Below, one piece after another: positions 6,967 to 63,887 of a stretch of DNA of 64,000 nt. Origin of the DNA: a virus. Taxonomy: Duplodnaviria; Caudoviricetes. A program made the translations under genes and the position numbers. The DNA lies in IMG/VR virus record IMGVR_UViG_3300022602_000027, one strand, 5' to 3'. Numbering within the stretch: the first letter of the stretch is position 1; every line of letters begins with the position of its first letter. The notes below the pieces were generated by a model that was not told where the DNA came from, made no database searches, and saw only the letters and a list, made by a program, of their open reading frames with translations.

Positions 6967-7821
6967 TTAGGTACCCCATTCATTTTTAAATAAAGGCACT
7001 TGTAGTCTATCACTATAGCGTAAGCCTGCCTTCATAGCTAGTTCTGCTACACGACGATTGTTTAATGTATAAACACTTTCTACTCCGCCAACTGGCATCA
7101 AATATACTGCGCCAGTAAAACCAGCAAGTCGATATAAATCCATTACTTCTAATGCTTCATATGCATCGTCTTCTGTGGCTACAACAAATTTAAGATATGT
7201 ATAACCAACATCTTGATATTGCAAAAGCACATCTGGTTTGATAGCATCTTCACGTTTTTCACCACTACAACTCAATTTAGCACTTACACTAAATGTTACA
7301 TCTCTAGTATAATGCTCATGCCCAGTCTGCCATTGTAACAAGTAACGTTGAAAATCATCAGTTAATGCTTGAGTGCCATTAGTTTCAAATGTAATTTCTT
7401 TTAAGTTATACATGTTAGGATGATCCAATAGATCTGGATAAGCACGTTGCCAGCCTAACAATGGCTCACCGCCTGTGATAACCAAATGCTCATCTTGCCA
7501 TTGTTTGTATGGAAGGATCTCCATAATGCGATCTGCAATAGCATCGCTTGTGAGCATTGGACTAAGTTCTTTAAAACTAGGATGCCAACTAGCATAACTA
7601 TCACAACCTGTACTAACCAAAGGAAGTTCTTCATATTTGTTATATAGATGTACTACTGTAGCAATGTCTTCGGCTTCCGCACTTAGTTCGCCACGTGGCA
7701 TACCAAAACCTGCACATTTAAAATTACAACCAAATGTACGCAAGAAAACAGACGGTACACCCATGTAACGTCCTTCGCCTTGCACACTATAAAATAACTC
7801 GGCAATCTTAATTTTACTCAT
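6967..7821 (-). CDS. queE: 7-carboxy-7-deazaguanine synthase (radical SAM)
   Basis: IAELFYSVQGEG, VFLRTFGCNFKC, ITGGEPLL, FETNGT, YLMP and LQV motifs; clustered with folE, queD and dpdA. Confidence 0.88.
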   Translation of the reverse strand: MSKIKIAELFYSVQGEGRYMGVPSVFLRTFGCNFKCAGFGMPRGELSAEAEDIATVVHLYNKYEELPLVSTGCDSYASWHPSFKELSPMLTSDAIADRIMEILPYKQWQDEHLVITGGEPLLGWQRAYPDLLDHPNMYNLKEITFETNGTQALTDDFQRYLLQWQTGHEHYTRDVTFSVSAKLSCSGEKREDAIKPDVLLQYQDVGYTYLKFVVATEDDAYEALEVMDLYRLAGFTGAVYLMPVGGVESVYTLNNRRVAELAMKAGLRYSDRLQVPLFKNEWGT

Positions 7822-8050
7822 CTTCGTCTTTCTCTAAAAATTGACTTACTTGATCTTCTGCATTCTGCAATGAAGATGCATAAACACTAAATGTAGCAAC
7901 ACCTTTACTTGCCTTTACATCAAACGGAACAGTACCGTTTGGCAACCAGTTTGGTTCTACTTCTCTTTTAATTTCAAACCATTGCATTTCTGTATTTTTC
8001 ATACGGTAAATTAATTCATCTGTTAATTGTTTTGCTGTATTCATTCGCAA
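7814..8050 (-). CDS. hypothetical protein (78 aa)
   Basis: ORF track; overlaps neighbours. Confidence 0.65.
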   Translation of the reverse strand: MRMNTAKQLTDELIYRMKNTEMQWFEIKREVEPNWLPNGTVPFDVKASKGVATFSVYASSLQNAEDQVSQFLEKDEDE

Positions 8051-8430
8051 TCGCCTTGTTCTGCTAATTTTGATACTGCTGATTTTTCTTTGCGGTCTTT
8101 TCTAAAATTATCTACGTCTTCTATAGCACTGAGCAATGTTTGAGCATAGTTAAATGCTTGCTGTCGACGCATAACTAGAGTAGACTCTGTATCGACGTAG
8201 CCTTTTGTTAACAACGACCAAATAGCATGCCACCGATCCTTGTAAAACCAATTGCTTTTTACAGTTGTATAGATAGTAACACTAACTTCATGATCGTCAG
8301 CTTCTACCCATACATGATGATCGTGATCAGAAGCACCGCACTCGCAAGTAACTCGGTAGGCTTTTGAGTCTCCCCAGTCGTTTGTTTGCATAATGCCTTC
8401 GGCTGGTACTTGTATTTTTAGATCAGTCAT
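8041..8430 (-). CDS. hypothetical protein (129 aa)
   Basis: ORF track; CEC...HDHH possible metal site. Confidence 0.7.
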   Translation of the reverse strand: MTDLKIQVPAEGIMQTNDWGDSKAYRVTCECGASDHDHHVWVEADDHEVSVTIYTTVKSNWFYKDRWHAIWSLLTKGYVDTESTLVMRRQQAFNYAQTLLSAIEDVDNFRKDRKEKSAVSKLAEQGDCE

Positions 8431-9185
8431 TTTGAAGCATACTCCTGTTGCATTTTGATATTGTCAAAGAATTCTTTCTTTGTACCTGGATCATCTTTAA
8501 ATGCACCTTTTAATACTGTAGTCTGCGTTAAACTACTCTTAGCCATAATGCCTCGATTCTCACAGCAACCATGCGTAGCTTGAATGTATACACCTAAGTC
8601 TGTAGCGCCTGTGGTTTTTTCTATTTCCCTAGCAATATCGTTACACAACTCTTCCTGGAGAGTGCCGCGACGAGCACACCACTGAGCAATACGAGTGTAC
8701 TTAGACAAACCAATAAGTTTTTGTGCGGCGATGATACCAATGTAAGCGACACCAGTAACGGGCTGATGATGATGACTGCACATAGAGCGCAACTCACTAC
8801 GTACCACCAACATACCTTCGTATCTGTCTTCGCCATCGTTTGGAAATGCTGTTGCGTCTGGTGCTGGGTCATATCTGCCACTCATTACTTCATTAAAATA
8901 CATCTTAGCAAGGCGACGAGCTGTGCCTTTGCTATTAGGATCGTTTTCACGATCAATAAGCAAACGGTCAAGCACTAGTTCAAATGCTTCTGTTGCTTCA
9001 TCAATTAGTTTATCTTTAAATTCTTCTGTAACGTATTCGCTAATATTATCGCCAGCCCAAAAGCGTTTGCCTTCTCGTTTCATTTTAAATCGAAGATGAT
9101 CGCCTAGATATGCTTCTTCGTAACCGCCGTCGCCTGCCATAGCATCTAACCCTGTCTCAAATTTATATGTTTGTGATTCTGTCAT
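8427..9185 (-). CDS. folE: GTP cyclohydrolase I
   Basis: SMCSHH, GLSKYTR, TLQEEL and ATHGCCENRG motifs of GCYH-I. Confidence 0.93.
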   Translation of the reverse strand: MTESQTYKFETGLDAMAGDGGYEEAYLGDHLRFKMKREGKRFWAGDNISEYVTEEFKDKLIDEATEAFELVLDRLLIDRENDPNSKGTARRLAKMYFNEVMSGRYDPAPDATAFPNDGEDRYEGMLVVRSELRSMCSHHHQPVTGVAYIGIIAAQKLIGLSKYTRIAQWCARRGTLQEELCNDIAREIEKTTGATDLGVYIQATHGCCENRGIMAKSSLTQTTVLKGAFKDDPGTKKEFFDNIKMQQEYASK

Positions 9186-11734: not shown

Positions 11735-12101
11735 AGTGGTCTTTCACTAGTTTGTAAGTTGTTTTAAATTTTTCAAAGGCTATCTTTAAACCTGGATATT
11801 CTTCACACATTTTTTGTATTCGATTAAAATCTGGCATACAGTTCACAAACTCTTCCTGCATCTGCCATTCGTAACCGGTACCAGCGCCTCCGATAGTAAA
11901 TCCTGAACTAGAACTACTAGTTCCGCCACTACTAATAGTAATAGTATTAGCACTAATCCCGCCAATGCCAGCACCGGTATAGTAAAAACTTGTTCCTGTA
12001 GTGTTACCGATAGTAATATTTCCTGAAACTGCTCCGGTGTTTAGTGTAACAGTATCATTGGATGTTATCAAGTAATCCTCTAGCTGAGAAGAAGTTGTCA
12101 T
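11700..12101 (-). CDS. hypothetical protein with Gly/Thr/Ser-rich N-terminal half (133 aa)
   Basis: ORF track. Confidence 0.65.
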   Translation of the reverse strand: MTTSSQLEDYLITSNDTVTLNTGAVSGNITIGNTTGTSFYYTGAGIGGISANTITISSGGTSSSSSGFTIGGAGTGYEWQMQEEFVNCMPDFNRIQKMCEEYPGLKIAFEKFKTTYKLVKDHYDTPEDQRPRP

Positions 12102-13146
12102 GTAAGTCCTTTGCTTGTTTGCGTATGGAAGGTATTCTTGTAGAATAATTATCCATGTGTTCTATTATTTTACGGCATAAGTCTGGTCTGTAAACTGTGT
12201 ATGTGTTAAAATCTTCAGTCCATTTACTGTCGTATTTGAACATGTCGTAATACATTTCTGTGTAACTTAATCTATCTGGAACCATAGGAATAGCGTCAAC
12301 TACCGCACCTTCATAGCAACTAATGCCTAAAGTTTCTTGTAAGTTAGCACTAAACACCATCTTGGCTTCGCCTAACAAGTTATGATATTCATTTTTTGTT
12401 AGTTGTTGATCCTGACACACTACAAATTCATACTGCGGTAAGTGTGTAGCTAAGTCTCTAAAAATCTCAACTTGCTTCTCAGGTGCAATGCGATGAGGAA
12501 AAAGAATTAAATCACGCTTGGGCATATTCTTATACATGGTTAATGTATCATTCATATACTCCATTGGCCAGCCAGTTCGAACATATTTTCCATCTTCTAG
12601 CATATCTGCTTTGTCCTCTTCTTCCCAAGGATTTTCAACCATGCCATCATTTAATAAATTATGATGGAACATATCAATATGGAAAGTAGTGGCAAAGTAA
12701 TTATGATCAAATGCCGCAAAGAATGATTTTTCTGCATGACGTACCCAAGGCTTGTTGCCAACAAGGCGCCCTAAGAAGTCTTGAGGATCATAACTACCGG
12801 CATGCCATAGTCCATGTGTGACTACTGGAATGTTTAGTAGTTCACTCATATATTTTAAGTTTATTATGCCAGGATGCCAAGCATCAGTGAAGATGAAATG
12901 ATCGCCAGGCTGAACTGATCCGGAGCAAAATAGACGCCCCATTTGTTCCACTTGTCGAGACTTATAGATATTGGTGCCGCCAAAATTAAGAAAAGCACCA
13001 GGAGTAGTGGCTGAAGGAATATCCTCAGGGCCAGATATAATTTGAACATTGTGTCCTGCCTTTCGTAAGAGATTAGGTACATGGCGTTTCCATTCGCCAG
13101 TGTACCTTGTCTCAACTGCTTCTAAATCAATTAGAAATACGGTCAT
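12055..13146 (-). CDS. GT-B fold glycosyltransferase (GT4-like)
   Basis: HRIAPEKQVEIF and QETLGISCYEG (E-x7-E) retaining GT-B signatures. Confidence 0.8.
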   Translation of the reverse strand: MTVFLIDLEAVETRYTGEWKRHVPNLLRKAGHNVQIISGPEDIPSATTPGAFLNFGGTNIYKSRQVEQMGRLFCSGSVQPGDHFIFTDAWHPGIINLKYMSELLNIPVVTHGLWHAGSYDPQDFLGRLVGNKPWVRHAEKSFFAAFDHNYFATTFHIDMFHHNLLNDGMVENPWEEEDKADMLEDGKYVRTGWPMEYMNDTLTMYKNMPKRDLILFPHRIAPEKQVEIFRDLATHLPQYEFVVCQDQQLTKNEYHNLLGEAKMVFSANLQETLGISCYEGAVVDAIPMVPDRLSYTEMYYDMFKYDSKWTEDFNTYTVYRPDLCRKIIEHMDNYSTRIPSIRKQAKDLHDNFFSARGLLDNIQ

Positions 13147-13396: not shown

Positions 13397-13798
13397 TTAG
13401 TATTTGATAAATGAACCATTTTCTCCATCTTCGGAGACCTCAATCCAAACCTCACGGTCAGGATACTTTTGTGAAATCATGTCATATAAATCATCTGACA
13501 TCATTTCGCAACTTTTATAATCTAGTTTTAGTATACTATCTTTGTATAGATTTTCCACCCAGCGTTTGAACTGGATGAATTCGACATCACGGTCGTTGTG
13601 GGTAACTGAAAGCCAAACGCGAAAATGGAATATATGACGATGAGGAGTAGCCAAAAACGATACATCATATTCATCTCCTGTTGCTAAGTTTGGATCTGTT
13701 GCGGCCGCTGGATAAGCGTGAATGCCTTCTTTCTGGAAAGTAACCCAGATCATTTTGTTTGGTCGAATGTCTTGTTTAATAATCATATTGTTTCCCAC
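13397..13798 (-). CDS. queD: divergent 6-carboxy-tetrahydropterin synthase (QueD-like)
   Basis: EGIH...PHRHIFHF Zn-binding His pattern, NDRDVEF, SCEMMS; context of folE, queE and dpdA. Confidence 0.7.
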   Translation of the reverse strand: MGNNMIIKQDIRPNKMIWVTFQKEGIHAYPAAATDPNLATGDEYDVSFLATPHRHIFHFRVWLSVTHNDRDVEFIQFKRWVENLYKDSILKLDYKSCEMMSDDLYDMISQKYPDREVWIEVSEDGENGSFIKY

Positions 13799-14199
13799 AT
13801 ATTTGGATCTAAATCTACTGCGTTGTCATATCTTGTTAGATGGTCATTGTTTTGAATTGTAACATGTGCATGACAATTACGACATAATACATCTAAATTT
13901 TCTTCATCGCTATTATGACGATTACCGTCAATATGATGAACATCTAGTTGTTCTGGACCAATAATATGTGCTGTACACACAAATCCATATTTTGTAGTTG
14001 TATTAGAACAGCCATTGTTCATTTTCCAGTTATCAACTTCAATCTTTTGACCTCCTCTATGACATTCACAAAACATTTTCCATTTTGCGCCAACTGTAGT
14101 GTTGACTTTTTTATATGTTTTATGAAATCCTACCCTGTTATTACAACCAGGTAATGCACATTTCGGAGCATGATTGTTTATTACTGCACGTTTCCTCAT
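13783..14199 (-). CDS. HNH endonuclease (free-standing, probably homing)
   Basis: DVHHIDGNRHNSDEENLDVLCRNCH; N-terminal CALPGC...CECH Zn-binding pattern. Confidence 0.8.
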   Translation of the reverse strand: MRKRAVINNHAPKCALPGCNNRVGFHKTYKKVNTTVGAKWKMFCECHRGGQKIEVDNWKMNNGCSNTTTKYGFVCTAHIIGPEQLDVHHIDGNRHNSDEENLDVLCRNCHAHVTIQNNDHLTRYDNAVDLDPNMWETI

Positions 14200-14723
14200 T
14201 TTATGATCTCATCATTTGTATATTCATCCCAATTGGTAAAATATTTCCTTTGAGTAATTGCACCAATCGGTACACACCAAACGCCGGGATTTGTGGCGTC
14301 GAAATCTTTATCATCAATCTTAATTGTAGCATTATACCCAAGTTGTCCTATATAAGGCAATTTTACACTAATTTGTGGAATAAATCTACGATGTTCGGTT
14401 AAACCGCTTTCTAATACACCTTCATGTTCACTAACATCAAAGTCTAGAGTACACCAATAACCTGCATCTAAACAACCTTGTATCATGTCTTCCCATGGGC
14501 GCCAACCTGGTATATCATTGACGCCTTTAGTGCCAAAACTTTGATTAGCACCGAAATAGATATGTGTACAATCATTATTTTTAGCAAGGCTAATAATAAC
14601 TTGTTCGTCGTGTGTACCTACTACGAACAAAGTTTTCATACCGTATGCAGGAGTGCGTTCAATTTCAGTACCGACAAAGAATGTTACATCTTCACTAGTA
14701 CCTGTAGTATATTCACGTTTCAT
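14196..14723 (-). CDS. hypothetical protein (175 aa) within the dpd locus
   Basis: ORF track; globular composition; no family recognised. Confidence 0.75.
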   Translation of the reverse strand: MKREYTTGTSEDVTFFVGTEIERTPAYGMKTLFVVGTHDEQVIISLAKNNDCTHIYFGANQSFGTKGVNDIPGWRPWEDMIQGCLDAGYWCTLDFDVSEHEGVLESGLTEHRRFIPQISVKLPYIGQLGYNATIKIDDKDFDATNPGVWCVPIGAITQRKYFTNWDEYTNDEIIK

Positions 14724-14973
14724 TTGTAAATTTCTTTCCTTCTTCCCAATATTTGATCATACGTTGTACATCTTCCATACGTTCTTGTATAACGTGTGGG
14801 GCCTCACGTTCTAATTCTTTTAAATTATGATAGCTAGGATAATGACGTAAACACCAACGAGCTTGTTCACGTATTTCTTTTGGAATACGTGGAGTCTTTT
14901 GAGGATTCATCAGATCCTGCAAAAACTCCTCAGTTCGCTGTATGCTTCTAAAGCGTTCGTCGGGTAATGTCAT
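14713..14973 (-). CDS. hypothetical protein (86 aa)
   Basis: ORF track; ATGA overlap with the dpdA stop; MTLPDER...LRHYP. Confidence 0.7.
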   Translation of the reverse strand: MTLPDERFRSIQRTEEFLQDLMNPQKTPRIPKEIREQARWCLRHYPSYHNLKELEREAPHVIQERMEDVQRMIKYWEEGKKFTNET

Positions 14974-16679
14974 AGTTCAAATAACGATTCGTTGAGTACA
15001 GGTTTAACTGGTTCTTTGACTACTTTTTCAATAGTTAAATTACCTTCAAATTCAATATGCACATCTGCCATTGCACTAGCATTGGTAATTCTATCACCAG
15101 TATTGCCTCTAGTGCCAATGATACGATCAAAATAGTCACCATAGAATTCAATTAAGTCTAAAGCATCTTGTCTATTGTCTATGCTAAAAATTAAATCAAC
15201 GATGTCTTTAAACTTATTTGGACCTGGACTATAATCTCTATGGGTTTTAGTTTCAGCAGTAGTAGCATTTAGCATTGCAGGAATGACACCAGCATCGCTT
15301 TGACGATTGGCTTCTTGCACAGCATTACAATGCATCCAAACATTATGTCCCATCATAATAGCATAAGTGAAACTATCCCAACTAGTACGTCCTTCTTTGC
15401 CTACTTTATTTAGATCGCCGGGTGCGTAGATGCAAATGTCTTTCATTAATACTTGATCCATAATTGGACTAGATTCAAATCTATCAAAAATATTGTCTTG
15501 TACTACTGCGTCTTTAAATAGCCTTGTATCGTTAGCATACTTCTTGTCATCGGCAGATGCTTGCATACGATAGACCCATTTGTCTGCATGTGGAGTTTCT
15601 GTAGCCATATAAATTTGTCCATTAGCAGTTGCTAAGAATGGACTTGCACAGTCAAAACTAATTGTAAAGTCTGGATTGTGATATTTGCGAACAGCACGTT
15701 GAATGTCAGTTAGTAGTACAGCCCATTCTAGTTTGCTAGTACCTAAGAAGTGCATCCAATCTTGGTGCCCTTGTTCTAACAATCCATCAAATCGCAAGTG
15801 TACTAGACGCTTCAACACTAAATGAACATCGCACATATTCTGTCCACCCATTGCCCAACCATTAAATGGTTTGTCATATTTGTTAGGATCGCAGAAATCT
15901 TTCATTTCATTATACCAATCATCTGCATCTGCGTGATTTTCACCTTGTAGAACGTTTAAGAACTTACAAGCACCTGTGCGATGTTTGATCCAATATTCGT
16001 TGTTGTATTTGGTTGCTGATACTGCTTCAGCATATGAGCTGATACCTGTAGCTTTAATACCTGCTGGACTGCGACATACCCATGCTGGAATATCAAGTAC
16101 CATACCATAATCCATATAAGCATCCATCCAACGCAACACTTGATCACGTTTCTTTTGTGCGGCGTCTAATTGTGCTTGATAAAGTTTAGGATGATCTACT
16201 TTGGTATATTTTTGATTACCATTCTTATCAGTTTTAGGATGTCCTGTTGGATGAAATTGCGGAACAAGCTCAACACCTAGGGCATTTACTTCTGCCCACT
16301 TAGCGGCAACTTCTGGCCCATTAGGATCCCGCCACTCGCCTTCCCATACGCCTTTACCAATCTGGAATCCACCTGAATCGCCTAGTACCCAACTAGTTGA
16401 GCGATCTCGATTACGGAACATGTCTTCAGACTCGTCTGGTTTACTCATGTCTAGATTAGCATGTCCAGCTGAGTAAAGACAATGATCATAATAGAACATA
16501 CCTTTCTCTGGTTCGAGATAGTTAAGACTTTCTACACTACCATTAAAACTTGCAGGTAGTCGAGCAGGATCTACGTAATTACTGTAACGCTGTCTACCAA
16601 TAAAAGTAGAATAGAATCCACTAGTTGCTGGCAAAAAGTATGCGTAATCGTTTTGTGTTGCAGTTAAGTTCTTATTCAA
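14970..16679 (-). CDS. dpdA: tRNA-guanine-transglycosylase-family DNA base-exchange enzyme (DpdA-like)
   Basis: TGT motifs VLGDSGGFQ, MVLDIP, LNVLQG, WAMGG, HFLGTS and SFDCASP; clustered with folE, queD and queE. TTG start uncertain. Confidence 0.82.
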   Translation of the reverse strand: MNKNLTATQNDYAYFLPATSGFYSTFIGRQRYSNYVDPARLPASFNGSVESLNYLEPEKGMFYYDHCLYSAGHANLDMSKPDESEDMFRNRDRSTSWVLGDSGGFQIGKGVWEGEWRDPNGPEVAAKWAEVNALGVELVPQFHPTGHPKTDKNGNQKYTKVDHPKLYQAQLDAAQKKRDQVLRWMDAYMDYGMVLDIPAWVCRSPAGIKATGISSYAEAVSATKYNNEYWIKHRTGACKFLNVLQGENHADADDWYNEMKDFCDPNKYDKPFNGWAMGGQNMCDVHLVLKRLVHLRFDGLLEQGHQDWMHFLGTSKLEWAVLLTDIQRAVRKYHNPDFTISFDCASPFLATANGQIYMATETPHADKWVYRMQASADDKKYANDTRLFKDAVVQDNIFDRFESSPIMDQVLMKDICIYAPGDLNKVGKEGRTSWDSFTYAIMMGHNVWMHCNAVQEANRQSDAGVIPAMLNATTAETKTHRDYSPGPNKFKDIVDLIFSIDNRQDALDLIEFYGDYFDRIIGTRGNTGDRITNASAMADVHIEFEGNLTIEKVVKEPVKPVLNESLFEL

Positions 16680-16851
16680 TTTTGCCCCATTTAATCTTTA
16701 ACCAAAGTCTTTCCATAATATAGTGTACAGCAGTTAGAATGACATGTATAAAAATAGCATCGCTTAATCCAGTCCATATGGCAGTTATTAACAATGCTAT
16801 TATTCTATAGCTTAATGCTCTAACTACTGTACGTTTATGAAGTTCAACCAT
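16672..16851 (-). CDS. DUF2061-like small membrane protein (59 aa, not in ORF track)
   Basis: Manual translation MVELHKRTVVRALSYRIIALLITAIWTGLSDAIFIHVILTAVHYIMERLWLKIKWGKIE; R..RA.SYR and YI.ER.W..I.WG pattern. Confidence 0.7.
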   Translation of the reverse strand: MVELHKRTVVRALSYRIIALLITAIWTGLSDAIFIHVILTAVHYIMERLWLKIKWGKIE

Positions 16852-17594
16852 TACTTGCTTTGTGCTGGAAGTATGTATTCGTAAACTGTAGTACCACTGT
16901 CTACAATAATTGCCAACGCACCTGCATCTGCAATCTTCATAGTAATGTCGCCTGACAACGCTAAAATAGCTTGTACTTGATTAACTGGCCATGACCATGT
17001 TTGTTTTAGTTTACCTGTAACACCGCTTTGGAACACAAATGATCCTGCGTGTGTACTTGCATCACCAAATTTAAATACCAAATTACCATTGTCTGTTGAA
17101 ACTTGAAAAACTGTTTCTTCTGTATGTGCCGCCGCCTGATATTTTAAACGCTGGATAGCAGTTACAGTAGGTTCAAATTCTACATCCCATGTTGTACCTT
17201 TGAATTTAACAGTCTTTAATTTTTCTGTAATGACTTCAAGAGTCATAAAACGATAATCGTTTTCGAAATCGCCTGTTGAATTTTGAAAATGTAAACCTGT
17301 CGGAATGTCTTCGCCATTGCGTTGTTGCATAACAACATTGATGCCAGCGCCTTCTTTATATTCCGGGCATTTCAAATGCAAATCTAATTTGTTCAGTTGA
17401 GGCATACCAAATACACCATCTAATCCATCTACTGGATTATGTGTTTTAGCATTAAGGATAACTGAACGATCTTCAGCCATTGATTCAACACTAGTTCCTT
17501 TTGAACTAGCCGTTACCTTAACCAAAGGTAAAAATCCTAAACTATGTGTGTGTGCTACTAAATCTTGTAAAAAGTCTTTCATATGATTCTCCAT
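16851..17594 (-). CDS. probable DNA polymerase sliding clamp (gp45/PCNA-like)
   Basis: About 243 aa with two-domain beta-rich composition; replication context (PolB, RFC-like loader). Assignment is inference. Confidence 0.55.
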   Translation of the reverse strand: MENHMKDFLQDLVAHTHSLGFLPLVKVTASSKGTSVESMAEDRSVILNAKTHNPVDGLDGVFGMPQLNKLDLHLKCPEYKEGAGINVVMQQRNGEDIPTGLHFQNSTGDFENDYRFMTLEVITEKLKTVKFKGTTWDVEFEPTVTAIQRLKYQAAAHTEETVFQVSTDNGNLVFKFGDASTHAGSFVFQSGVTGKLKQTWSWPVNQVQAILALSGDITMKIADAGALAIIVDSGTTVYEYILPAQSK

Positions 17595-17602
17595 GTTTTA
17601 TT

Positions 17603-17630
17603 ATTATACAGTATTTTGTGACTATGTCAA
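17603..17630 (-). promoter_or_regulatory. sigma70-type promoter TTGACA-16-TATAAT
   Basis: Upstream of the clamp-DUF2061-dpdA run. Confidence 0.65.
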
Positions 17631-18398
17631 TGTTTTTCTAACTCGTTTGTTATATTTTATTGCCGATTCTACTAAAGTATGCGATATTTGCAAACTATCA
17701 GCATAATGTACAAAGGCATTAGTGTCTTTGGGGAAACAAGCACCACCAAAACCACGGCTTCCGTCGGGACCTGGAACTTGCATATGGCTTGTGCCAATAC
17801 GCTCGTCCAATTTGAGTAATTCGATAACCTTATTATAATCAGCGCCATTAGCTTGACACATGTCATATAACTGATTAAAGAACGCTACTTTGACACTTAG
17901 GAAACAATTAGTGGCATATTTTACCATAGCCGCTTCTGTCAGTGTGCAATGTTCAATCTTATTTAGGTTTTTGAGAGAAACAATGAATAATTCTCTCCAA
18001 ATATTTCCAGGATTATCACCACCTAAAATCATGTATTCCTGATTAGCAAAGTCTTCGTTAGCACTTACAGCACGTAAGAACTCTGGGCTATAGGCAATAC
18101 TATGTTTGGGATAATTTACTAGTAGTCTATTTAGGTAATCTGGACGTACTGTACATTTAATTAATACAGGCATTGTTTCAGGAACTGTATCCATTACTTG
18201 ATATATTTGACTTACATCGCAATCACCTATCGACGTCATAGGAGTACCGACACAGATAATAACTCCATCGGCATCTGGATAATCTTTTACTGTTTGTTCA
18301 CTTATTTTTGGATCAACAATATATACTGTGTTTGTTTGATCAATGGCACTGGCAACAGCCTTGCCAACAAATCCGTAACCTGCAATTATAATTTTCAT
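17622..18398 (-). CDS. UDP-glucose/GDP-mannose dehydrogenase-family protein (lacks C-terminal domain)
   Basis: GYGFVG Rossmann, CVGTP, PEFLRA, KYATN and GFGGACFPKD; start moved to MKIIIAG at 18398. Confidence 0.88.
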   Translation of the reverse strand: MKIIIAGYGFVGKAVASAIDQTNTVYIVDPKISEQTVKDYPDADGVIICVGTPMTSIGDCDVSQIYQVMDTVPETMPVLIKCTVRPDYLNRLLVNYPKHSIAYSPEFLRAVSANEDFANQEYMILGGDNPGNIWRELFIVSLKNLNKIEHCTLTEAAMVKYATNCFLSVKVAFFNQLYDMCQANGADYNKVIELLKLDERIGTSHMQVPGPDGSRGFGGACFPKDTNAFVHYADSLQISHTLVESAIKYNKRVRKTLT

Positions 18399-18399
18399 A

Positions 18400-21066
18400 T
18401 TAAAACTCGAATAGGCTATTAAATGTATTTTTCTCTTCAGTACTAGCAACGTCCCATTTTAGAACACCGATTAAGTTATCTAATTTGTTATCGATAATAG
18501 TCTGCTCCATTTCTGCATGATCAAAAGGAAGATCCTTAAACCATTGTGGTAAACGTAGTTCATCAACTGGATATGCAACACTAGTAAAGCCTAGCGGATT
18601 AGGTTTGAGTTTACATACAATAACTTTGGCGCCGTCTGTAATACTCATAGAGTATTTGTCATTGTACATACGCTTGAGGGTATTCCAATTAATACTTGCA
18701 CGAACATGGCCAGGCATATTTGCTTTACCTGCTTTGGCTTCTTTACCTTGATATTCAGTAATCTTGTTAGCACGTTTAGGCGAACCTTTTTCCCAACCCG
18801 GACGAGCTTTAAACTTGATACGGAATTCACTAATGTGATCTAGAACTTCTTGTTCAGGTTTACCCATTAGCACCATTTCAAGAACATCGCTTAAGAAATT
18901 TTGAATAAATTCAGGAGTATCACTACGCTTTAGGTCCAAGCCCATAGCTTTAATCTTACCAGGCTTGCCTTCTACGTCTGTACGTTTACCTTCTTTATCA
19001 TAGTAAAGAACTGCATAACGTTTCTTAGTAATAAACAAACTCTTAGAGCCAACAATTTCACGTCCAGCTTTAATAACTTCTCCACGCGACTTAGGTACAT
19101 GAAATGCATCTAGCATGAACTGTGGAAATGTAGTGTTAACTTCATCTCCAATTGTGTCATACAGTTGTATTACTGTTTCTTTTGTCCAGGGGATGGTACC
19201 TTTTTCAATGTCCTTCTGTAGAGTGCTATAAGCACTAAAATAACAACTATCAGTGTCACCATATATTACTGCCTTTCCTATGTGATTATAATCGCCAGTT
19301 ATGATTTCATTTACTTTACTAGCCATATGTTTAGCGATCTGGCGTCCAGTAAGAGTAGTGGACTGCCCAATACGCTTATCAAAGAACCTACAACCGCTAT
19401 TAAGAATAGCACCATACAAACTATTGAGGTTAATTTTCTTAACCAACTGTCTTTTGTCCCAATATTCTTCTTCAACTTTATTCCCCGCCTTAATGGCATC
19501 CTTTAGTTTAGCCTGCATTTCTTTACGTTCGGCATACCAACGTTTGAGTAATCCAGGAATAATACCTTCTGTTTCGTGCGTAAAGATAGTACCATTGGCA
19601 CTCATCATCCAAGGTTGATTGCTTTCAAATATAAGTCTGTAGACTTCTGCGGCACTAAGTACATCAGTATCTCCATTTTCCCAGTCAATGGTAATGTCTG
19701 TACCAATTTCTTGATTCATTACAGCAGTATATTCAATAGTACCAAACATACCTTCCCACGCCGCGGCAAACGACTTTCCTTTCGCCATTAAGTTTTCAAT
19801 ATACTCATCAGTCTTAGTTGGACGTAACTGTCCAATAATAGTTTCTGGACCCATATTAAGTGCTCTAATTGCACTAGGATACAGTGAGTTAATATCTAAA
19901 GATCCAACCCAATCTTGTAATCCTTCTTTAGGATATGCAACATACGCACCTGCCGCCGCAGTATCTTCACGATCACTCATTTTAATACGATTAGGAACAA
20001 CGAATCCTCTGCGATGTGCTTCATTAATAATAGCTTGTTCAGTAACGGCTACAGCACCCATTGTAGTTTGTAGCAATACAGTATTTTCATGTGCTAGTGT
20101 ATTTGCTAAATCGATAAACTTTAGTTTTCTATCTAGTTTTTCAAGTAGCATACAGTCATTGATGTTGTATTCAACAAATGTTTTAAAGTCATTGTTGTAT
20201 AACTGATCCAATGTACCTTCGTATTGTGTTTTACGTTCACCTAATTCATATTCTGCAATAGCATCTAGTCGATAACTATGTCGTTCTTCATATGTATATT
20301 TGCGATACAACTCTAAATAGTCTAAATGTACACGACCAATGTAGTCATATGTAACAGCATTACGACCATATTTTTCATATTCACGGCGCTTAGGTAACTG
20401 ATCAAACAAACAAAAACGTCTAGTGTCTTCTTTGCCTAATGTTTTAATAACACGGTTAGTAGTATAGGGAATATCAAAGCCTTCTGAGTTCCAACCACTT
20501 ACAATATCTGCATCTTTAATTAGATCTAAGAACATGTCTAATAAGTCTGCTTCATTATCAAACAAATAAGTGTTAGGAAATTCTTTAACCATTTCCTTAG
20601 CATCTTCCATACCAAGGCCCTTAGGAGGAATAGCTAGGCATACCATTGTTTGTAACCATTGTAGGTAGACAGCAATCGCAGTAATTGGCATAAATGCATC
20701 GTCTGGACTAGCATAGCCACGCTCTGGATCGAAGTCTACCTCAATATCGAAAAATGCTACATTTAACTTAGGAGCATCTTGATTAAGATAGTTTTCACTT
20801 AGTGTTACAAAGATAGGATTAATGTCTGCTTCGTACATTGTCTTGCCACTGTTGATAGCTTGTTCTTTACGAAGTTCTTTTGTGTTTTTACAGACAATCC
20901 TTTGTACAGGATCTCCATAAATTGATTGATGTTTCCCTCTCGGGTCTTTTACATAAAATGTGTGGCGTACAGGAATATCTCTAAATTCCCTTTCGCCTTT
21001 TTGGTTGCGTTCAACGATCTTGATGATATCGTTGTCACGGTCAAACCATGCGTCAACGTAAGACAT
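18400..21066 (-). CDS. family B DNA polymerase (T4 gp43-like)
   Basis: Exo I FFDIEVD; Pol motifs SLDINSLYPS, KKINLNSLYG, YGDTDS and KKRY. Confidence 0.97.
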   Translation of the reverse strand: MSYVDAWFDRDNDIIKIVERNQKGEREFRDIPVRHTFYVKDPRGKHQSIYGDPVQRIVCKNTKELRKEQAINSGKTMYEADINPIFVTLSENYLNQDAPKLNVAFFDIEVDFDPERGYASPDDAFMPITAIAVYLQWLQTMVCLAIPPKGLGMEDAKEMVKEFPNTYLFDNEADLLDMFLDLIKDADIVSGWNSEGFDIPYTTNRVIKTLGKEDTRRFCLFDQLPKRREYEKYGRNAVTYDYIGRVHLDYLELYRKYTYEERHSYRLDAIAEYELGERKTQYEGTLDQLYNNDFKTFVEYNINDCMLLEKLDRKLKFIDLANTLAHENTVLLQTTMGAVAVTEQAIINEAHRRGFVVPNRIKMSDREDTAAAGAYVAYPKEGLQDWVGSLDINSLYPSAIRALNMGPETIIGQLRPTKTDEYIENLMAKGKSFAAAWEGMFGTIEYTAVMNQEIGTDITIDWENGDTDVLSAAEVYRLIFESNQPWMMSANGTIFTHETEGIIPGLLKRWYAERKEMQAKLKDAIKAGNKVEEEYWDKRQLVKKINLNSLYGAILNSGCRFFDKRIGQSTTLTGRQIAKHMASKVNEIITGDYNHIGKAVIYGDTDSCYFSAYSTLQKDIEKGTIPWTKETVIQLYDTIGDEVNTTFPQFMLDAFHVPKSRGEVIKAGREIVGSKSLFITKKRYAVLYYDKEGKRTDVEGKPGKIKAMGLDLKRSDTPEFIQNFLSDVLEMVLMGKPEQEVLDHISEFRIKFKARPGWEKGSPKRANKITEYQGKEAKAGKANMPGHVRASINWNTLKRMYNDKYSMSITDGAKVIVCKLKPNPLGFTSVAYPVDELRLPQWFKDLPFDHAEMEQTIIDNKLDNLIGVLKWDVASTEEKNTFNSLFEF

Positions 21067-21081
21067 AAATTTTCTTCTCCA

Positions 21082-21136
21082 TGCAATTTAGGGCTTGCAA
21101 ATACCTTTCTGCGACTTATGGCTCGCGAACCTTTCG
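21082..21136 (-). promoter_or_regulatory. tandem-hairpin 5' leader of polB (putative translational operator)
   Basis: Two units GAAAGGT-n-stem-GCC(A/C)TAA(G/A)-stem immediately 5' of the SD GGAG. Confidence 0.5.
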
Positions 21137-21148
21137 TTATATACTTAT

Positions 21149-21406
21149 TTAGATTTTTTTAGTAATATCTAAAATTGCTTCAATCTCAGCCCAATCTTCG
21201 TTATGTGCCGCCCAATCGCCTTTGTGTGCAATCTTAATAGCTTTATTAATAACTGATGGTTTGATTTGAAGTTCTTCTGCAACTGCCTTAACAGTTTCTT
21301 TTAAACCTTCTGTTAAGTCTTCAACTTCACGTAGTACTGTAGAACCTTCATTAATTAGTCGTTCTAGTTTTGCCTTTTCTTCTGCGCCGTAATTTCTTCC
21401 TGACAT
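21149..21406 (-). CDS. small dsDNA-binding protein (T4 DsbA / GapR-like)
   Basis: LKETVKAVAEELQIKPSVINKAIKIAHK helix pattern; 85 aa; position beside the polymerase. Confidence 0.55.
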   Translation of the reverse strand: MSGRNYGAEEKAKLERLINEGSTVLREVEDLTEGLKETVKAVAEELQIKPSVINKAIKIAHKGDWAAHNEDWAEIEAILDITKKI

Positions 21407-27713: not shown

Positions 27714-28156
27714 TACTTAAGACTCGCTCTCAACATCCAGCTGTGTTTTTTATGTGCATCTTGACGATCAGCCAAGAAATTGCTTAGTCCATGATCACCA
27801 TGTCCTTCTGCCATATCAAAAGTAATACGAAATATTTCTGACATCTTTTCGCTATCTGCTAACAATTCACTTAACATTCCATGTGTATCGGGAACAGCAT
27901 TTTCATCTTCAACTGCTGATAACAAACTAAATTTTTGTAGGCTAGCAGGTGTATATACTTCTAACGCACGAATTTGTTCAGCAAATGTATCAATGCTACC
28001 GTATACTTCGTCATAAATTCTTTCAAACAATAAATGCAGTTGATAAAATATTGGCCCTTCACAGTTCCAATGAAAATTTTGTGCCTTTAATGCAAAGGCA
28101 TATTCACTGGCAAATGCAGTCTTGAGTGCTAAATGATATTTGTTTGATTCTTCCAT
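27713..28156 (-). CDS. dps: Dps / ferritin-like DNA-protecting protein
   Basis: NFHWNCEG, LHLLFE and DTFAEQIRAL ferroxidase ligands; C-terminal HKKHSWML. Confidence 0.9.
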   Translation of the reverse strand: MEESNKYHLALKTAFASEYAFALKAQNFHWNCEGPIFYQLHLLFERIYDEVYGSIDTFAEQIRALEVYTPASLQKFSLLSAVEDENAVPDTHGMLSELLADSEKMSEIFRITFDMAEGHGDHGLSNFLADRQDAHKKHSWMLRASLK

Positions 28157-28710
28157 TATACACCGTACTTGTTACGAGGTTTTTGTGCAACTGGACTAGT
28201 TTGATTTACAGTTGACAACTCTACACTAGGCTTACTAGTTTTTAAGCTAGTCTTATGCCCTTGTCGTTTAATTTCTTTATCAAACCTTGCATGTTCTTCA
28301 GGAGCGAAAGGCATAAAGAATGGATGCTTACCGATATTGTCGGCAGTGGCAATATTACGATCCCCGGCTGCTAGTCCCATACCTAATCTATATACACCGT
28401 AGAAATCGCTTGGTAAATCTTCTACACTAAATGCTCCGGGCATCGCAGCCTTTGATTCATCGGATAAATCTCCTCGAATACTACCGTATTCATTATTATC
28501 TTGATGACGACTATGCGTGTCATGCGGGGATCCATCTTTTGGAACCCCTAACTTACCTGATGTAAATGATTTAGGGTTGTATTTTTTTGTAGCTTGAGTT
28601 ATTTTACCGTCCTTTTTTGTTTGCGCAAGAGTTTTACCTTGACGATCAACTTTGTCAGGGTTGCTTATGCTATCATCAGCAGATTCGATAATAAATTCTT
28701 TAGCTCTCAT
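28156..28710 (-). CDS. RNKYG-family hypothetical protein, paralog 3 (184 aa)
   Basis: Starts MRAKEFIIES, ends SPVAQKPRNKYGV. Confidence 0.8.
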   Translation of the reverse strand: MRAKEFIIESADDSISNPDKVDRQGKTLAQTKKDGKITQATKKYNPKSFTSGKLGVPKDGSPHDTHSRHQDNNEYGSIRGDLSDESKAAMPGAFSVEDLPSDFYGVYRLGMGLAAGDRNIATADNIGKHPFFMPFAPEEHARFDKEIKRQGHKTSLKTSKPSVELSTVNQTSPVAQKPRNKYGV

Positions 28711-29094
28711 TTAAATTCCGTATTTGTTTCGTTTCTTAGCGGCTACAGGACTTACATTGTGTACATCATCGGGTTCGTGGCTTGGAGTACGTGGACGAAC
28801 TTGATGGTATTCTGTAGGTATTGCTTTATGAACTTGCTGTATCATTTCATGTTCTTTATCAGTATATGGGTGTAAAGTCCACATAGTCCCCATCCAGCTT
28901 TCGTGATCAATATCAAGTTTTTCATTACTACCGTCTGCCATTGCTAGTGCCATACCTGTACGCAATTGGTGATATGATGGATACCAACCACCTGGATCAC
29001 GCTGACGGCTGTATCCTTGATGGACTGCTTCGTGGTCCGGATGCGTTTGCCCAGATCGTTCAGTTATGAATTCTTTAGCTCTCATTTAAATTCC
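28694..29094. repeat. identical 26-bp direct repeat spanning two stop/start junctions (28694-28719 and 29069-29094)
   Basis: AATTCTTTAGCTCTCATTTAAATTCC read at both positions. Confidence 0.9.
28711..29085 (-). CDS. RNKYG-family hypothetical protein, paralog 2 (124 aa)
   Basis: Starts MRAKEFITER, ends SPVAAKKRNKYGI. Confidence 0.8.
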   Translation of the reverse strand: MRAKEFITERSGQTHPDHEAVHQGYSRQRDPGGWYPSYHQLRTGMALAMADGSNEKLDIDHESWMGTMWTLHPYTDKEHEMIQQVHKAIPTEYHQVRPRTPSHEPDDVHNVSPVAAKKRNKYGI

Positions 29095-32000
29095 ATACTT
29101 GTTACGTTTAGGCTTAGCCACTGGACTATTCTTATTAATGTTGTCTGGCTCGCGACTACGATCTGATAATACTGTTGGATTACCGATGCCTAAAGTTTTT
29201 CCGGCTGCTTTGATGATTTCTAAATCTGCATCACTATATGGTGCTAGTAAAGGATCTCCAGCAAACCAACTTGCAGTGGGCATGTCGATATTTTCATCTG
29301 CATTAGGGTGAGCACCTGCTAGTGCAAGTCCAAAACGATATTGCAGATAACTACTACCGTTTGATTTATTCATGCTAATGTCTGGATAACTAACTGCATT
29401 ATTAAGCCCTGCGATTGAATTATGTGAAAGCTCTTGAACATCGCCTTGTCCAGCATAAGGCGCATCTTTAGTAGCCGCTGTAATTGTAGCTTTTTCGTTA
29501 AGTTGTTTTCTTGTAAATTCGCTTGCTCGCATTTTTCTAATCCAGTTGTTGGCTTCTTTTATATTTAGCGGTTCAACAGGTGGCTCATCTTGTGCTGGAA
29601 CTTGTGCCGGTATTTGAGGTTGTGGGTTAGGATCACGCTTATCAACAACATTTACAGAAGCTCCGGGAACCATGCCCATGCCCTGCTGTGTTACTTGCAT
29701 TAGATGTTTAATCCAAGAATCTGGTAAAGGTTTAGCACCAAATGATCCGCCATTAAACGCATCTCGCCAAAATTCCATAGCTGGTTCTTTATGACCATGT
29801 GCCGCCAATGCTGCCATTTTGCGTAGTTGTGTGCCACTTACACCTTGTCCACGTGGCGTAACATCTAAACTTGCGCGAACGTGTTCGTAACCAGCAAACT
29901 TGTTAACTGCTTTCATTAGAACTTGTGCAATATTCATATTAGCACGATCCTCACCCACCATAATAACAATATTGTCGTATCGCGGAGGTTTGCCTGGTAG
30001 CGGATTGATTAATTCGTGTTTAATCTTTTGTAGTAGTGTACCGCCTTCATGTGTGACTGTACTCATATGGCTAGCATATTGCGGATACAATTTATGCCAT
30101 GTTTGAACTTTGATGCTAGGAGGAATAGGATCATCCTTGCCTTCTGCATTGCCAATAAACAAATATGGATCACCGCCTAATTCTTTAGCCTTGTTAACTG
30201 TATAATTCCACAGCTCTTGATGTCCTTTGTGTCCAACAAACGACCCTATAGCAACTACAGCAGTTTTATTAGTGTTTTCACGAGTCTGTTCAGCTCTTGC
30301 GGCAGCCTTGGCAGCATTTTTATTTGCAATAATTTGACGTTGCTCTTGGCTGGTAACCTTAATAGGACCTAATCTACTATTAATAACAATACCTTCGTAT
30401 TCATCACCTAGTAAATTTTTACCAACAATATTAGGATCGTTAATAATAGCCTTTTCTAATTCTAGTGCTATCGGTTGTAGTATTTCTTTAGCTTCACGTT
30501 TTAGTGCTAGTTTTCCACTAGTTAACATTGCTTTAATTTGTTCAATGTTCTCCATTGGGGGAACAATGGCAGTAACATCTAGGGCTTTGTTTTGTGTTAA
30601 TCTATTGTTAATAAACATAACACTATCTTGTTGTCCAAGTTTTGTTAATTGTTCAACTACTTTATGCCCATCGGGGATTGACTCACCTGTAGTTGCATCA
30701 CTAACATGGAACGGAACAAGAGCTAATTCAATACCTTCAGGCAATTTGTCATAGTGTATACCGACAAATTTTAATTTACCTTCTGGTGTTTCTGTAGCAA
30801 ATGGAATGAATAAGACTTCACATGTTACTTGTTTGTTTACTAAAAATTCTGGACCTAACTTACTGTCTACTAATTCTATAGCTTTCATCATTTCGTTAAA
30901 CAAGTCATCAAACATTTGAGCACGACCTAGTATGTCCGGATCAGTTGTTCCTTTTTGTTGATGGTATTTTACAAATCCAGGTTCATAACGTGGCTCAGTA
31001 CGGCTAGTACCCATAAAAGGTTTGCCTTCTGCATTTTTACCAAAGCGTCCACCAAAGCCGTCTACTTTAACATTAAGTGGAATATTCTTTAATTCAAACT
31101 TACCATTGTCGTGTAGCTCGTCTAGTAAATCTAATAAGTCCATTGGTTTTAAATCACGCAAGTGTGGCATACCTTTACGTAATTGTGCTTTAACTTCAGC
31201 TTCAGTTAACGGACGACTAGCATTACGAGCCGCACGTAGTTTGGCAACTTGTGCTCTTGGTTGACGTTCTTCAGGATAATCTTTTTTATACTGTTCAACC
31301 TCGTGATGCTCTTCTTCATAATCAGCCGCCATTGTTTTAGCTTTAGTTTCTAAAGATGCTTTGTCGGTTAAATTAAGATGTGCTAGTGCATAATTAATAG
31401 CAGACATTTTAACAGCACGATCGCCTTCTGGATCGTCTCTGTTTATCATTTGTGAACCTACTTCAAAACACAATTGAATAAAAGCATCCATTGTTATTTG
31501 ATTTTCTTCAGGAGTTTTAAAAGTATTCATTAAATCAATAGTACCAACAAAACTTTTTTGTTTTTCGCTTTCCTGTTTATTAGGTTGACGACCAAAGAAT
31601 AATTCAAACTGTTGATTTAAATCTTGTATATAGGGTCTATCTTTAGTAGGTATTTCAATCATAATTGGAATACCGTCCTGCTCGCGTCCAGTTTCTTGAT
31701 ACTTTTGACTCAATCCGCCACCAGTAGTTCCATGTACAGCAAATGATATGTTACTGTCAGTGATTGGACCTTTTAATTTAGTCTTCATCTGAACATATTT
31801 TGTTGTAGGTGATCCTTTAGTTAATGATCTATACAAGTATTTGTGGAACACACCTTTGATGCCGCTGACTACCCCAGTGCCATCCTTCTTGCCTTTTTCC
31901 TGCGCACTTAAATCGTTCCACTCTGAGTTGTGACTGAATCTATACCAAGGAGTCGGTGCATTAGTCTTTTGGTCATACTCACCAAATTCAAAATCTATTT

Positions 32001-63000: not shown

Positions 63001-63887
63001 GCACGACCTTGACGTCCAGCTGGCGTAAGAGTTTGGTTATCATCACCTGTTGTAGAAACATACAAGTTTACTGAACTGTAAAATGTATTATTATCAACAT
63101 AGTATTTTGTAGCCGCTTGTAAGTCCGAGCTTGACTTAGGAGTTCCAAATCCTGATAATGGTGCTGGATGATCGCTAAGAGTTAATGCACCAGTCATAGT
63201 GTCACCACCACGGTACACTGTATCTTTACGTTGCATTACTTCAGTAGTCAAGTAATTACTTGTGTATGAAGCGTTATAATCACTATCGCTAATTTGCGGA
63301 ACTAATGGTTGTGAGCGAGTTTTAAGAGCCGCGCTAACGGTATAAGTGCCCGCAACAGGAGCAGACAACACTTGATTAAGATTGCTAAAATTACTACCAA
63401 CAGCCGCAACAAAATTTTGAACACCGTAGTTAACTGATACAGGTAAACGTCCAAGTGTAGTAGGAGCACCTGAATAAACAGAGTTAAATGCATTAACTAG
63501 TGATGAACTAGGATCTACAATATTACCAATGGTATAAAGACTGTTGGCATTAATACTTTGAATAAGTGTAGGACTAGTATCATCAATTAGCTTAGATGCT
63601 GTAGCTTTAATATCAATAGTATTTTCAGTAAAGGTAATGGCTAAGTTACCATCGGAGTTAGTTAAAGTTCTTGCAGAAAGACTTGTTCCAGTAGCGTTTG
63701 CAGTAATCAATTGATTAGCGGCATAGCTAGTTCCGTCACCTAGCCCTGCTAAAGTTAGTTTTCCACCTAATCCAAATATTGCATAAAGTTCAGTAAAGTT
63801 ACTGTTAACTTTATTAAACGAATCACGAATGCTGTCGCCAGTTCCGTCGTTACCTTGAATACCTGTATTAATTATTTGTTGTGTCAT
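51078..63887 (-). CDS. giant mosaic tail fibre / adhesin (4269 aa)
   Basis: gp9/10-like N-terminus [12 protein letters not shown]; fibre knuckle motifs AATKYYVD and AANKTYVD; beta-helix-like [24 protein letters not shown]; C-terminal ADLAEYYE...IIGKAL intramolecular chaperone-like domain. Confidence 0.8.

Follow-up and report, generated by a model that had tools for sequence, protein, structure and literature searches.

The virus DNA analysed here, a stretch of 64,000 nucleotides (nt) from a member of the Caudoviricetes (IMG/VR record IMGVR_UViG_3300022602_000027; the whole stretch is referred to below as the window), carries on its minus strand neighbouring genes for a family-B DNA polymerase (PolB), for a PCNA-fold sliding clamp, and for a 569-residue protein that resembles DpdA, the transglycosylase that places 7-deazaguanines in phage DNA. 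The sequences, the structure models and comparison with related phages together suggest that this DpdA-like enzyme is probably tethered to the clamp through a short motif in its C-terminal tail, of the same kind as the motif with which the polymerase ends. The features of the window on which this proposal depends are given here, with lengths in amino acids (aa) and including one short open reading frame (ORF).

18400..21066, minus strand: family-B DNA polymerase (PolB), 888 aa (Pfam DNA_pol_B 2.2e-38 and DNA_pol_B_exo1 4.3e-19; phrog_262 DNA polymerase 3.2e-200)
18403..18426, minus strand: PolB C-terminal peptide TFNSLFEF, putative clamp-binding tail (translation)
17603..17630, minus strand: consensus sigma70-type promoter, TTGACA-16-TATAAT, 12/12 matches
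16851..17594, minus strand: predicted PCNA-fold sliding clamp, 247 aa (AlphaFold2 model and Foldseek; phrog_12062)
16672..16851, minus strand: hydrophobic 59-aa ORF between the clamp and DpdA-like genes, overlapping its neighbours by 1-8 nt
14970..16679, minus strand: DpdA-like enzyme with a tRNA-guanine transglycosylase (TGT) fold, 569 aa, putative DNA 7-deazaguanine transglycosylase (AlphaFold2 fold)
14973..15107, minus strand: low-confidence, probably disordered tail, enzyme residues 525-569 (predicted local distance difference test, pLDDT, <50)
14973..14996, minus strand: enzyme terminal peptide LNESLFEL, putative clamp-interaction motif (translation)

PolB ends in NTFNSLFEF, with SLFEF encoded at 18403-18417 (minus strand), and the 569-aa ORF ends in KEPVKPVLNESLFEL (PVLNESLFEL), with SLFEL at 14973-14987 (minus strand). 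A preliminary description of this DNA had placed the two pentapeptides at exactly these coordinates, as translation confirms, and had claimed that no other ORF in the window ends in this way. The latter claim holds for real genes: in a six-frame survey SLFE[FL] was found to be terminal in just two of them, PolB and the 569-aa ORF, and a relaxed form of the motif, which occurs seven times in ORFs of at least 60 aa, lies at the exact C-terminus in those two genes only. Among 61 minus-strand ORFs of at least 80 aa, the sole other set of C-termini sharing at least four of the last five residues is an NKYG[IV] trio, encoded by consecutive genes of 184, 124 and 1136 aa at 28156-32496 (minus strand) and ending SPVA-x-x-x-RNKYG[IV]. 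In the AlphaFold2 model of the enzyme, residues 525-569 have pLDDT below 50, in agreement with the flexible linker that had been proposed to precede the peptide, and a short helix is predicted at residues 564-568, over SLFEL.

The product of 16851..17594, which had been taken as the probable clamp on the evidence of the sequence, has the PCNA fold of sliding clamps according to structure comparison. Its AlphaFold2 model (pLDDT 87.8, predicted template-modelling score 0.87) shows the two-domain beta-alpha-beta-beta-beta architecture over the full length, and when it was compared with the PDB using Foldseek the best match had E 1.8e-11, with TM scores of 0.6-0.7 over the full length and about 260 aligned columns. 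All 50 matches listed were PCNA or sliding-clamp entries, and there were at least 500 matches at E <=0.001. Three copies modelled together, without DNA, gave pLDDT 89. Sequence searches were less informative, in that no Pfam family was matched at E <=0.01 and a profile built from 15 homologues found no clamp among PDB sequences. Homologues are annotated as PCNA in phage PAC2 and as sliding clamp in phage Phosso, both jumbo phages; that of phage PA5oct (EST35_0314, locus L001 4915-5661; 37% identity) is annotated 'structural protein, ESI-MS/MS'. Jumbo phages of the PA5oct kind typically have RFC-type clamp loaders, according to Iyer et al. (PMC7824862).

No intergenic gap separates the clamp gene, the 59-aa ORF and the 569-aa gene, so that a single operon is plausible, and the sigma70 promoter proposed in the preliminary description to be shared by clamp and enzyme does lie directly ahead of the clamp gene, in front of all three. 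It is the sole perfect (12/12) match within 14500-21400, and 9 nt separate its end from the annotated clamp ATG. The second ATG of the clamp gene (17582, M5) has GGAG 7 nt ahead of it, and distant homologues begin MKD, which suggests that the clamp starts at M5, giving a protein of 243 aa and a very short leader. The 59-aa ORF matches no family in Pfam or PHROGs; it gave 34 blast matches among the 80 closely related loci described below and is absent in locus L087.

The identity of the enzyme likewise follows from its predicted fold. The AlphaFold2 model has a mean pLDDT of 90.4 and superimposes (VIA-align) on bacterial TGT, archaeosine TGT and QTRT1 with Z of 19-20 and a root mean square deviation of 4.3-4.9 A over 290-310 residues; the best Foldseek match is at 4.5e-08, and all 50 matches listed belong to the TGT family (bacterial TGT or murine QTRT1). 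Matches in BFVD include proteins of Achromobacter phage Motura, Dinoroseobacter phage R5C and Mycobacterium phage Bella96 that are named either tRNA-guanine transglycosylase or queuine ribosyltransferase, as well as an unnamed protein of Vibrio phage nt-1, and phiST DpdA3 appears as a weak match. Across 72 homologues there is little or no variation at D101-S-G-G, D196, H310 and D343, the aspartates in D101-S-G-G-F-Q, L-D196-x-P and F-D343-C/S being 99-100% conserved. By their position in DSGGFQ, LDxP and FDC motifs these residues look like the three aspartates of TGT enzymes, which we take to be, in the Zymomonas mobilis enzyme, D102 in DSGG, D156, and the nucleophile D280 in FDC. The zinc-binding pattern CxCxxC...H is not conserved in the same 72 homologues, only C416 (65%) and H445 (85%) being partly kept. 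Profile searches of Pfam (including PF01702), PHROGs, PADLOC (for DpdA) and the PDB gave no match to the enzyme; PF01702 also misses the published phiST-type DpdA3. The name dpdA given in the preliminary description is therefore reasonable as regards fold, conserved aspartates and gene context, and is not recovered by sequence models; the 569-aa protein looks, from its model, like a member of an unclassified DpdA-like subfamily found in jumbo phages of the PA5oct type. The family is abundant in metagenomes, with more than 6600 database proteins at E <=1e-5.

Assignment to DpdA3 was considered and rejected. Neither the family profile nor Pfam TGT has a match in Campylobacter phage CP220 or Cellulophaga phage phi19:2, and the phiST-type DpdA3 is a tail-less protein of 259 aa from a phage with a Pol III alpha polymerase; an hhalign comparison of the two was marginal (probability 82%, E 1e-05, 82 columns). 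A Pfam TGT search of the T4-like Vibrio phage nt-1, intended to provide a tail for comparison with its gp43, located no DpdA.

A role for the enzyme in placing 7-deazaguanine in DNA is indicated by gene context, both in the window, where FolE, QueE-like and DpdL-like genes lie on the same strand, and in PA5oct and Vibrio phage 2.275.O.

13397..13798, minus strand: DpdL/QueD-like protein, 133 aa (34% identity, E 8e-17, to Cellulophaga phage phi19:2 gp040)
8427..9185, minus strand: GTP cyclohydrolase I, FolE (Pfam GTP_cyclohydroI 7.6e-38)
6967..7821, minus strand: QueE-like radical SAM protein (phrog_2076 'QueE-like radical SAM domain', 3.5e-51)

FolE, which catalyses the first step of 7-deazaguanine synthesis, is encoded also in locus L085. 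The DpdL-like protein falls in phrog_17812 (unknown function); its relative phi19:2 gp040 is the positional equivalent of DpdL of phiST, the latter having been described in PMC10516641. phiST DpdL is the predicted decarboxylase of 7-carboxy-7-deazaguanine (CDG). The 129-aa ORF at 8041-8430 of the window shows no similarity to QueD of phage 9g. Homologues of the enzyme in PA5oct (32.5% identical to that of the window) and Vibrio phage 2.275.O adjoin genes for QueE, QueF, queuosine biosynthesis and FolE. For PA5oct, Iyer et al. list a system for deazaguanine synthesis and incorporation (PMC7824862), and its DNA resists several restriction enzymes with G-containing sites, suggesting modified G, and is also attacked by nucleases directed against phages whose G is modified (PMC12191111). 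The DpdA-like family is likely to be the missing insertion enzyme of the PA5oct-like jumbo phages. The enzyme of the window is a putative catalyst of guanine-to-7-deazaguanine exchange in DNA, and the base inserted may be 7-deazaguanine itself or a derivative of it. In PA5oct (L001 7620-8681), in Vibrio phage 2.275.O (L002 7723-8835) and in L085 (4159-5289) the gene after the DpdA-like one encodes a protein of about 360 aa, and a gene of the same type lies near the enzyme gene of the window at 12055-13146 (minus strand). It has no Pfam or PHROG match, and may belong to the modification pathway.

Conservation of the tails was assessed in several sets of relatives. In a close set of 80 IMG/VR loci, whose clamps are 74-99% identical to that of the window, the last nine residues of PolB (FN[SN]LFEF) are alike in all 80, and four loci have a single residue change further upstream in the 14-residue PolB tail. 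The tail of the enzyme varies in sequence among relatives except at the motif, and takes one of two forms: either the motif is terminal, as in the window ([IVF]LN[ED][SN]LFE[FLV]), or it is internal, in which case x-F-x-x-LF-[DE]-E-V is followed by about 35 acidic residues, at the end of which stands another conserved motif, (K)L[DE]xLE. Examples of this second, amphipathic motif are KLDELEASVHDIT and LTELEQGLDN (tails surveyed: loci L018, L025, L034 and L092-L167). In PA5oct the enzyme has an internal SFNSLFDV and PolB ends in HFDSLFGW. The x-F-x-x-LF-acidic motif is retained in the otherwise variable tails of distant homologues too, down to about 30% identity.

Beyond the close set, 103 full-length representatives of 50%-identity clusters of enzyme homologues were examined for a [polar][LMI]F core within the last 50 residues. 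It was present in 62 of the 103, as compared with 28.3 +/- 4.4 when the tails were shuffled (maximum 44 in 2000 shuffles) and an expected 13.3 in windows taken from the folded core. The distant homologues P0264 and P0201, which lie on short contigs, are without the motif, and a search with another homologue, P0152, as query found no related loci.

A second set of 80 loci, around a homologue 47% identical to the enzyme of the window, provided many independent pairs of PolB and enzyme. The PolB tails and the corresponding enzyme motifs include NNTDLFDW with NNNDLFGW, TFNSLFEIS with VFNSLFEAED, TFESLFA with NMLFAAED, AFDLLFS with SMLFSNED, YIDDIFS with VDDIFT, and FVDDLFG with VNDLFD: the motifs of the two proteins drift together across lineages. 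This was put to a permutation test, in which the PolB hexamer was compared with cognate or permuted enzyme tails using one locus per clamp cluster, and none of 20000 permutations matched the cognate score at n=72, 29 or 13 lineages, while 161 of 20000 did so at n=9. In the clade with DD[IL]F motifs the C-terminus of the clamp is of the EYLIMAQG type and not of the YILP type. Thus the tail motif, which the preliminary description had proposed to be a docking peptide common to the two proteins, is kept in orthologues of the enzyme and tracks the tail of the cognate polymerase (0/20000 with 13 lineages).

The motif is also restricted in its distribution. Among 171 loci, 233 ORFs of at least 80 aa end in its relaxed form, and 191 of these encode PolB or DpdA-like proteins; the remainder are scattered and small and form no conserved family. 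When five related contigs, 93-165 kb in length, were searched for LFE[FLV]-stop, it was found to close the PolB and DpdA-like genes only, apart from one spurious ORF of 15 codons. The gene order, clamp and then DpdA-like gene, is kept in PA5oct, in Vibrio phage 2.275.O, and in loci L085, L086 and L087, with clamp identities as low as 31-37%. The PolB gene, intact in the window, is interrupted in PA5oct (L001 1-4834) by the gene for a Hef-like homing endonuclease and in L087 (4955-9154) by an intein or an extra ORF.

A structure of the complex was predicted from three copies of the clamp, with its own alignment, and residues 520-569 of the enzyme, together with three controls. The trimer with the enzyme tail scored 0.53, 0.53 and 0.52, and the three controls 0.00. 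In calibration, 58 of 80 solved complexes and 2 of 110 mismatched pairs reached the mark, and scores of 0.60 or below comprised only 7 of the 80 solved complexes and both of the mismatches that passed, so that the verdict of the tool is 'weak support'; the calibration conditions also differ from those of this job, with its own alignment, trimeric clamp and partner of pLDDT below 50. Confident contacts join tail residues 557-563 and 565-569 to clamp residues 42-44, 127, 129-134, 161-162, 203, 222, 224-226 and 243-246. In the clamp model residues 126-137 form the interdomain loop and 243-246 the C-terminal strand, and judging from the order of secondary-structure elements the predicted site would be the surface on which PCNA and gp45 receive their client peptides. 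The C-terminus of the clamp that differs in the DD[IL]F clade is part of this predicted site. In the model, at the level of weak support just given, the last 13 residues of the enzyme tail dock on the clamp at its interdomain connector loop and C-terminal tail.

There is a precedent for such an arrangement. The T4 proteins gp43, gp33 and gp55 bind the gp45 clamp through interchangeable hydrophobic-acidic C-termini, which in gp33 and gp55 are carried on unstructured linkers (PMC2988020). The window shares with T4 and RB69 a phage-encoded clamp of predicted trimeric type, a family-B polymerase with a hydrophobic-acidic extreme C-terminus, and a putative non-polymerase client bearing a near-identical peptide on a flexible linker. 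It differs in that this client would be a DNA base-exchange enzyme, whereas gp33 and gp55 of T4 are transcription factors, and in that the clamp is PCNA-like by fold, its sequence giving no match to clamps of solved structure. Neither the window nor the partial related genomes showed a client of the gp33 or gp55 kind that carries the motif. Among the phage enzymes DpdA1-DpdA4 described by Hutinet et al. (PMC6884629, PMC10516641), there are likenesses to that of the window in the TGT fold, in the DSGG aspartate motif, in the association with FolE, QueE and QueD-like genes, and in the location near polymerase genes; the enzyme of the window is distinguished from them by its length (569 aa, versus 259 aa for phiST DpdA3 and 317 aa for 9g DpdA) and by its long, probably disordered tail with a polymerase-like motif.

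It is proposed that the enzyme has a catalytic body of TGT fold, up to about residue 520, which would be followed by a flexible tail of about 45 residues, ending in a hydrophobic-acidic motif x-F/L-x-x-LF-E-[FLV] of a kind common to the C-terminus of the cognate family-B polymerase. PolB would bind the phage clamp through this hydrophobic-acidic C-terminus, as T4 gp43 does, and the motif of the enzyme would insert into the peptide pocket of the PCNA-like clamp, under the interdomain connector loop and beside the C-terminal tail of the clamp, this being the same pocket that PolB would use. A trimeric ring would have three pockets, so that polymerase and enzyme could share one clamp; alternatively, the enzyme might use clamps left on DNA behind the fork. 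Clamps loaded at forks, or left behind, would carry the enzyme along duplex DNA and raise its local concentration and processivity, and guanines would be exchanged for the 7-deazaguanine base on DNA that is clamp-loaded, that is, replicating. Physical binding, use of the same pocket by PolB and activity of the enzyme on DNA are inferred. As to the recruitment of DpdA to the clamp that the preliminary description had proposed, each of the three grounds for refutation named there was examined computationally and none overturned it: the tail is conserved, the 247-aa protein has a PCNA fold and the dock on the clamp is weakly supported, while the binding itself is a prediction.

Several points weigh against this proposal. 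In about half of the close relatives, and in PA5oct, the motif lies 35-45 residues from the end, so that ending in the same peptide as PolB is not the general state of the family, and the second motif, (K)L[DE]xLE, after the acidic stretch means that the tail may have functions beyond clamp binding. Part of the signal in the permutation test may still come from shared ancestry. The PA5oct clamp homologue has been detected in virions by mass spectrometry, which is unexpected for a replication clamp. Binding of PolB to the clamp through its tail is argued by analogy with T4 and RB69, and the activity of the enzyme is predicted from a model, the protein having neither a match to TGT or DpdA sequence models nor a conserved CxCxxC...H. 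In the complex prediction the score is in the 'weak' band, with a partner of pLDDT below 50, and the pose may have been memorised by the model, as training data are rich in PCNA-peptide complexes; moreover, conserved positions of the clamp are not clearly enriched at the predicted interface (by hand count about 6 of 21, against 49 of 247 overall).

Some of these points would sit well with a motif that docks on another partner common to PolB and the enzyme, such as the single-stranded DNA-binding protein (SSB), the helicase-primase or a subunit of the clamp loader, or that serves as a signal for the replication compartment or for packaging into the virion. Clamp binding is after all predicted from models, the second conserved motif present in many tails implies at least one further partner, and the clamp homologue of PA5oct is found in virions. 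Short acidic-hydrophobic tails also serve interactions of the SSB type, an example being the helicase of phage 9g, which ends in DFDDDIPF, presumably the same as the C-terminal tail of Escherichia coli SSB. On the other side, the clamp gene is the conserved immediate neighbour of the enzyme gene and apparently co-transcribed with it, the motif is of a type that fits the known clamp-binding termini of T4-type polymerases (PMC2988020), the model, whose controls give 0.00, has it in contact with the clamp at the connector loop and C-terminal tail, and the C-terminus of the clamp changes in the very clade in which both motifs change. A partner other than the clamp is on this evidence unlikely.

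The motif might instead bind the clamp in a regulatory capacity, whether by competition with or displacement of the polymerase (tool-belt switching, or slowing of the fork to allow modification to finish) or through allosteric activation only. Because the motif is the same as that of the polymerase, competition for the pocket would be expected, and the clamp clients of T4 exchange freely by virtue of interchangeable termini (PMC2988020). The three pockets offered by a trimeric clamp bear on both sides of the question, and they would permit co-occupancy of one ring without competition. No feature separates regulation from simple tethering or points to it, and we give a purely regulatory role little credence.

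That the resemblance is functionless, with LF dipeptides arising by chance in acidic low-complexity tails and the likeness to PolB reflecting composition or common lineage, can be regarded as very improbable, for although the motif is short, the core pattern occurs in 28 of 103 shuffled tails too and the permutation test carried no phylogenetic correction, the observed 62 exceed the shuffle maximum of 44, the motif is kept down to about 30% identity while the linker varies, cognate matching was equalled in none of 20000 permutations, and in the 171 loci it is essentially PolB and DpdA-like genes alone that end in the motif.

Tethering of the DpdA-like enzyme by the clamp thus remains the preferred explanation. 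The preliminary description had gone further, in proposing that guanine would be exchanged on nascent phage DNA only and that this would account for discrimination between self and host and couple modification to replication or packaging; such a restriction, or any selectivity of this kind, we regard as doubtful at present, and the tie to packaging as conjecture. A similarly speculative extension, which seems to us rather less than probable, is that clamp tethering is the general route by which large, clamp-encoding phages reach near-complete, replication-coupled replacement of guanine by 7-deazaguanines. If that were true, the enzyme would ride just behind the fork and modification would be co-replicative, confined to DNA bearing phage-loaded clamps; this would explain the selectivity for phage over host DNA and also the failure that such enzymes can show in E. 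coli when no partner is co-expressed, and through the second motif, (K)L[DE]xLE, the enzyme would be joined to another component of the replisome.

Clamp-binding peptides, phage clamps and DpdA enzymes are each already known. What is new here is the class of clamp client, together with an unclassified DpdA-like subfamily, predicted from sequence, structure models and comparative genomics. Insertion by DpdA has been described as post-replicative, with the clamp unmentioned (PMC6884629, PMC10516641), and how the enzyme finds phage DNA or reaches very high replacement has been left unexplained (PMC10516641); a literature search found no paper linking DpdA to a sliding clamp beyond incidental co-mention. 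A clamp-binding motif would give a concrete mechanism for targeting of the transglycosylase and would mean that sliding-clamp clients include an enzyme of DNA base exchange, and it points to an abundant, unannotated DpdA-like family for which there is no Pfam or PHROG model. For heterologous use of such enzymes, co-expression of the clamp and its loader may be needed.

Two further systems invite comparison. In the Queuovirinae (9g and CAjan) DpdA likewise adjoins a phage-encoded clamp and PolB. In phage 9g (locus L175, 36-3960 and 9945-11948) the three genes lie side by side, the clamp being of the beta type, and DpdA ends in RLQDLFDE, which in sequence resembles the beta-clamp-binding motif of bacteria. 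The 9g proteins differ from those of the window in that DpdA belongs to the DpdA1 subfamily (317 aa), the clamp is beta-like (330 aa), and PolB lacks a matching terminal peptide. In eukaryotes, DNMT1 and UNG2 are DNA-modifying or base-flipping enzymes tethered to PCNA through PCNA-interacting-protein (PIP) boxes. By analogy only, here too an enzyme acting on bases would ride the clamp by means of a short motif on a disordered segment and leave its mark just behind the fork; the enzymes are different ones, the motif is not Q-x-x-[LIM]-x-x-[FY][FY], and the clamp of the window is viral.

One more gene lies within the region between PolB and clamp.

17622..18449, minus strand: short UDP-glucose/GDP-mannose dehydrogenase-like gene (Pfam UDPG_MGDP_dh 2.2e-25; N-terminal domain 4.5e-11)

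This gene is wedged between those of PolB and the clamp, and its ORF overlaps the PolB stop codon; its true start is likely to be the ATG before MKIIIAGYG, near 18398. It is short (about 258-275 aa), and Pfam recognises its N-terminal and central domains only.

The window has a GC content of about 37-38% and is thus AT-rich, and over roughly its first 44 kb transcription is almost entirely from the minus strand. A search of INPHARED found no near-identical phage genome. Within the deazaguanine cluster, at 13783-14199 (minus strand), there is an HNH endonuclease gene (a weak Pfam HNH match and several PHROG HNH families), possibly a mobile insertion. An AAA protein encoded at 2007-3098 is MoxR-like and has a VWA partner, and a single ORF of 4269 aa, at 51078-63887 (minus strand), fills the last 12.8 kb.

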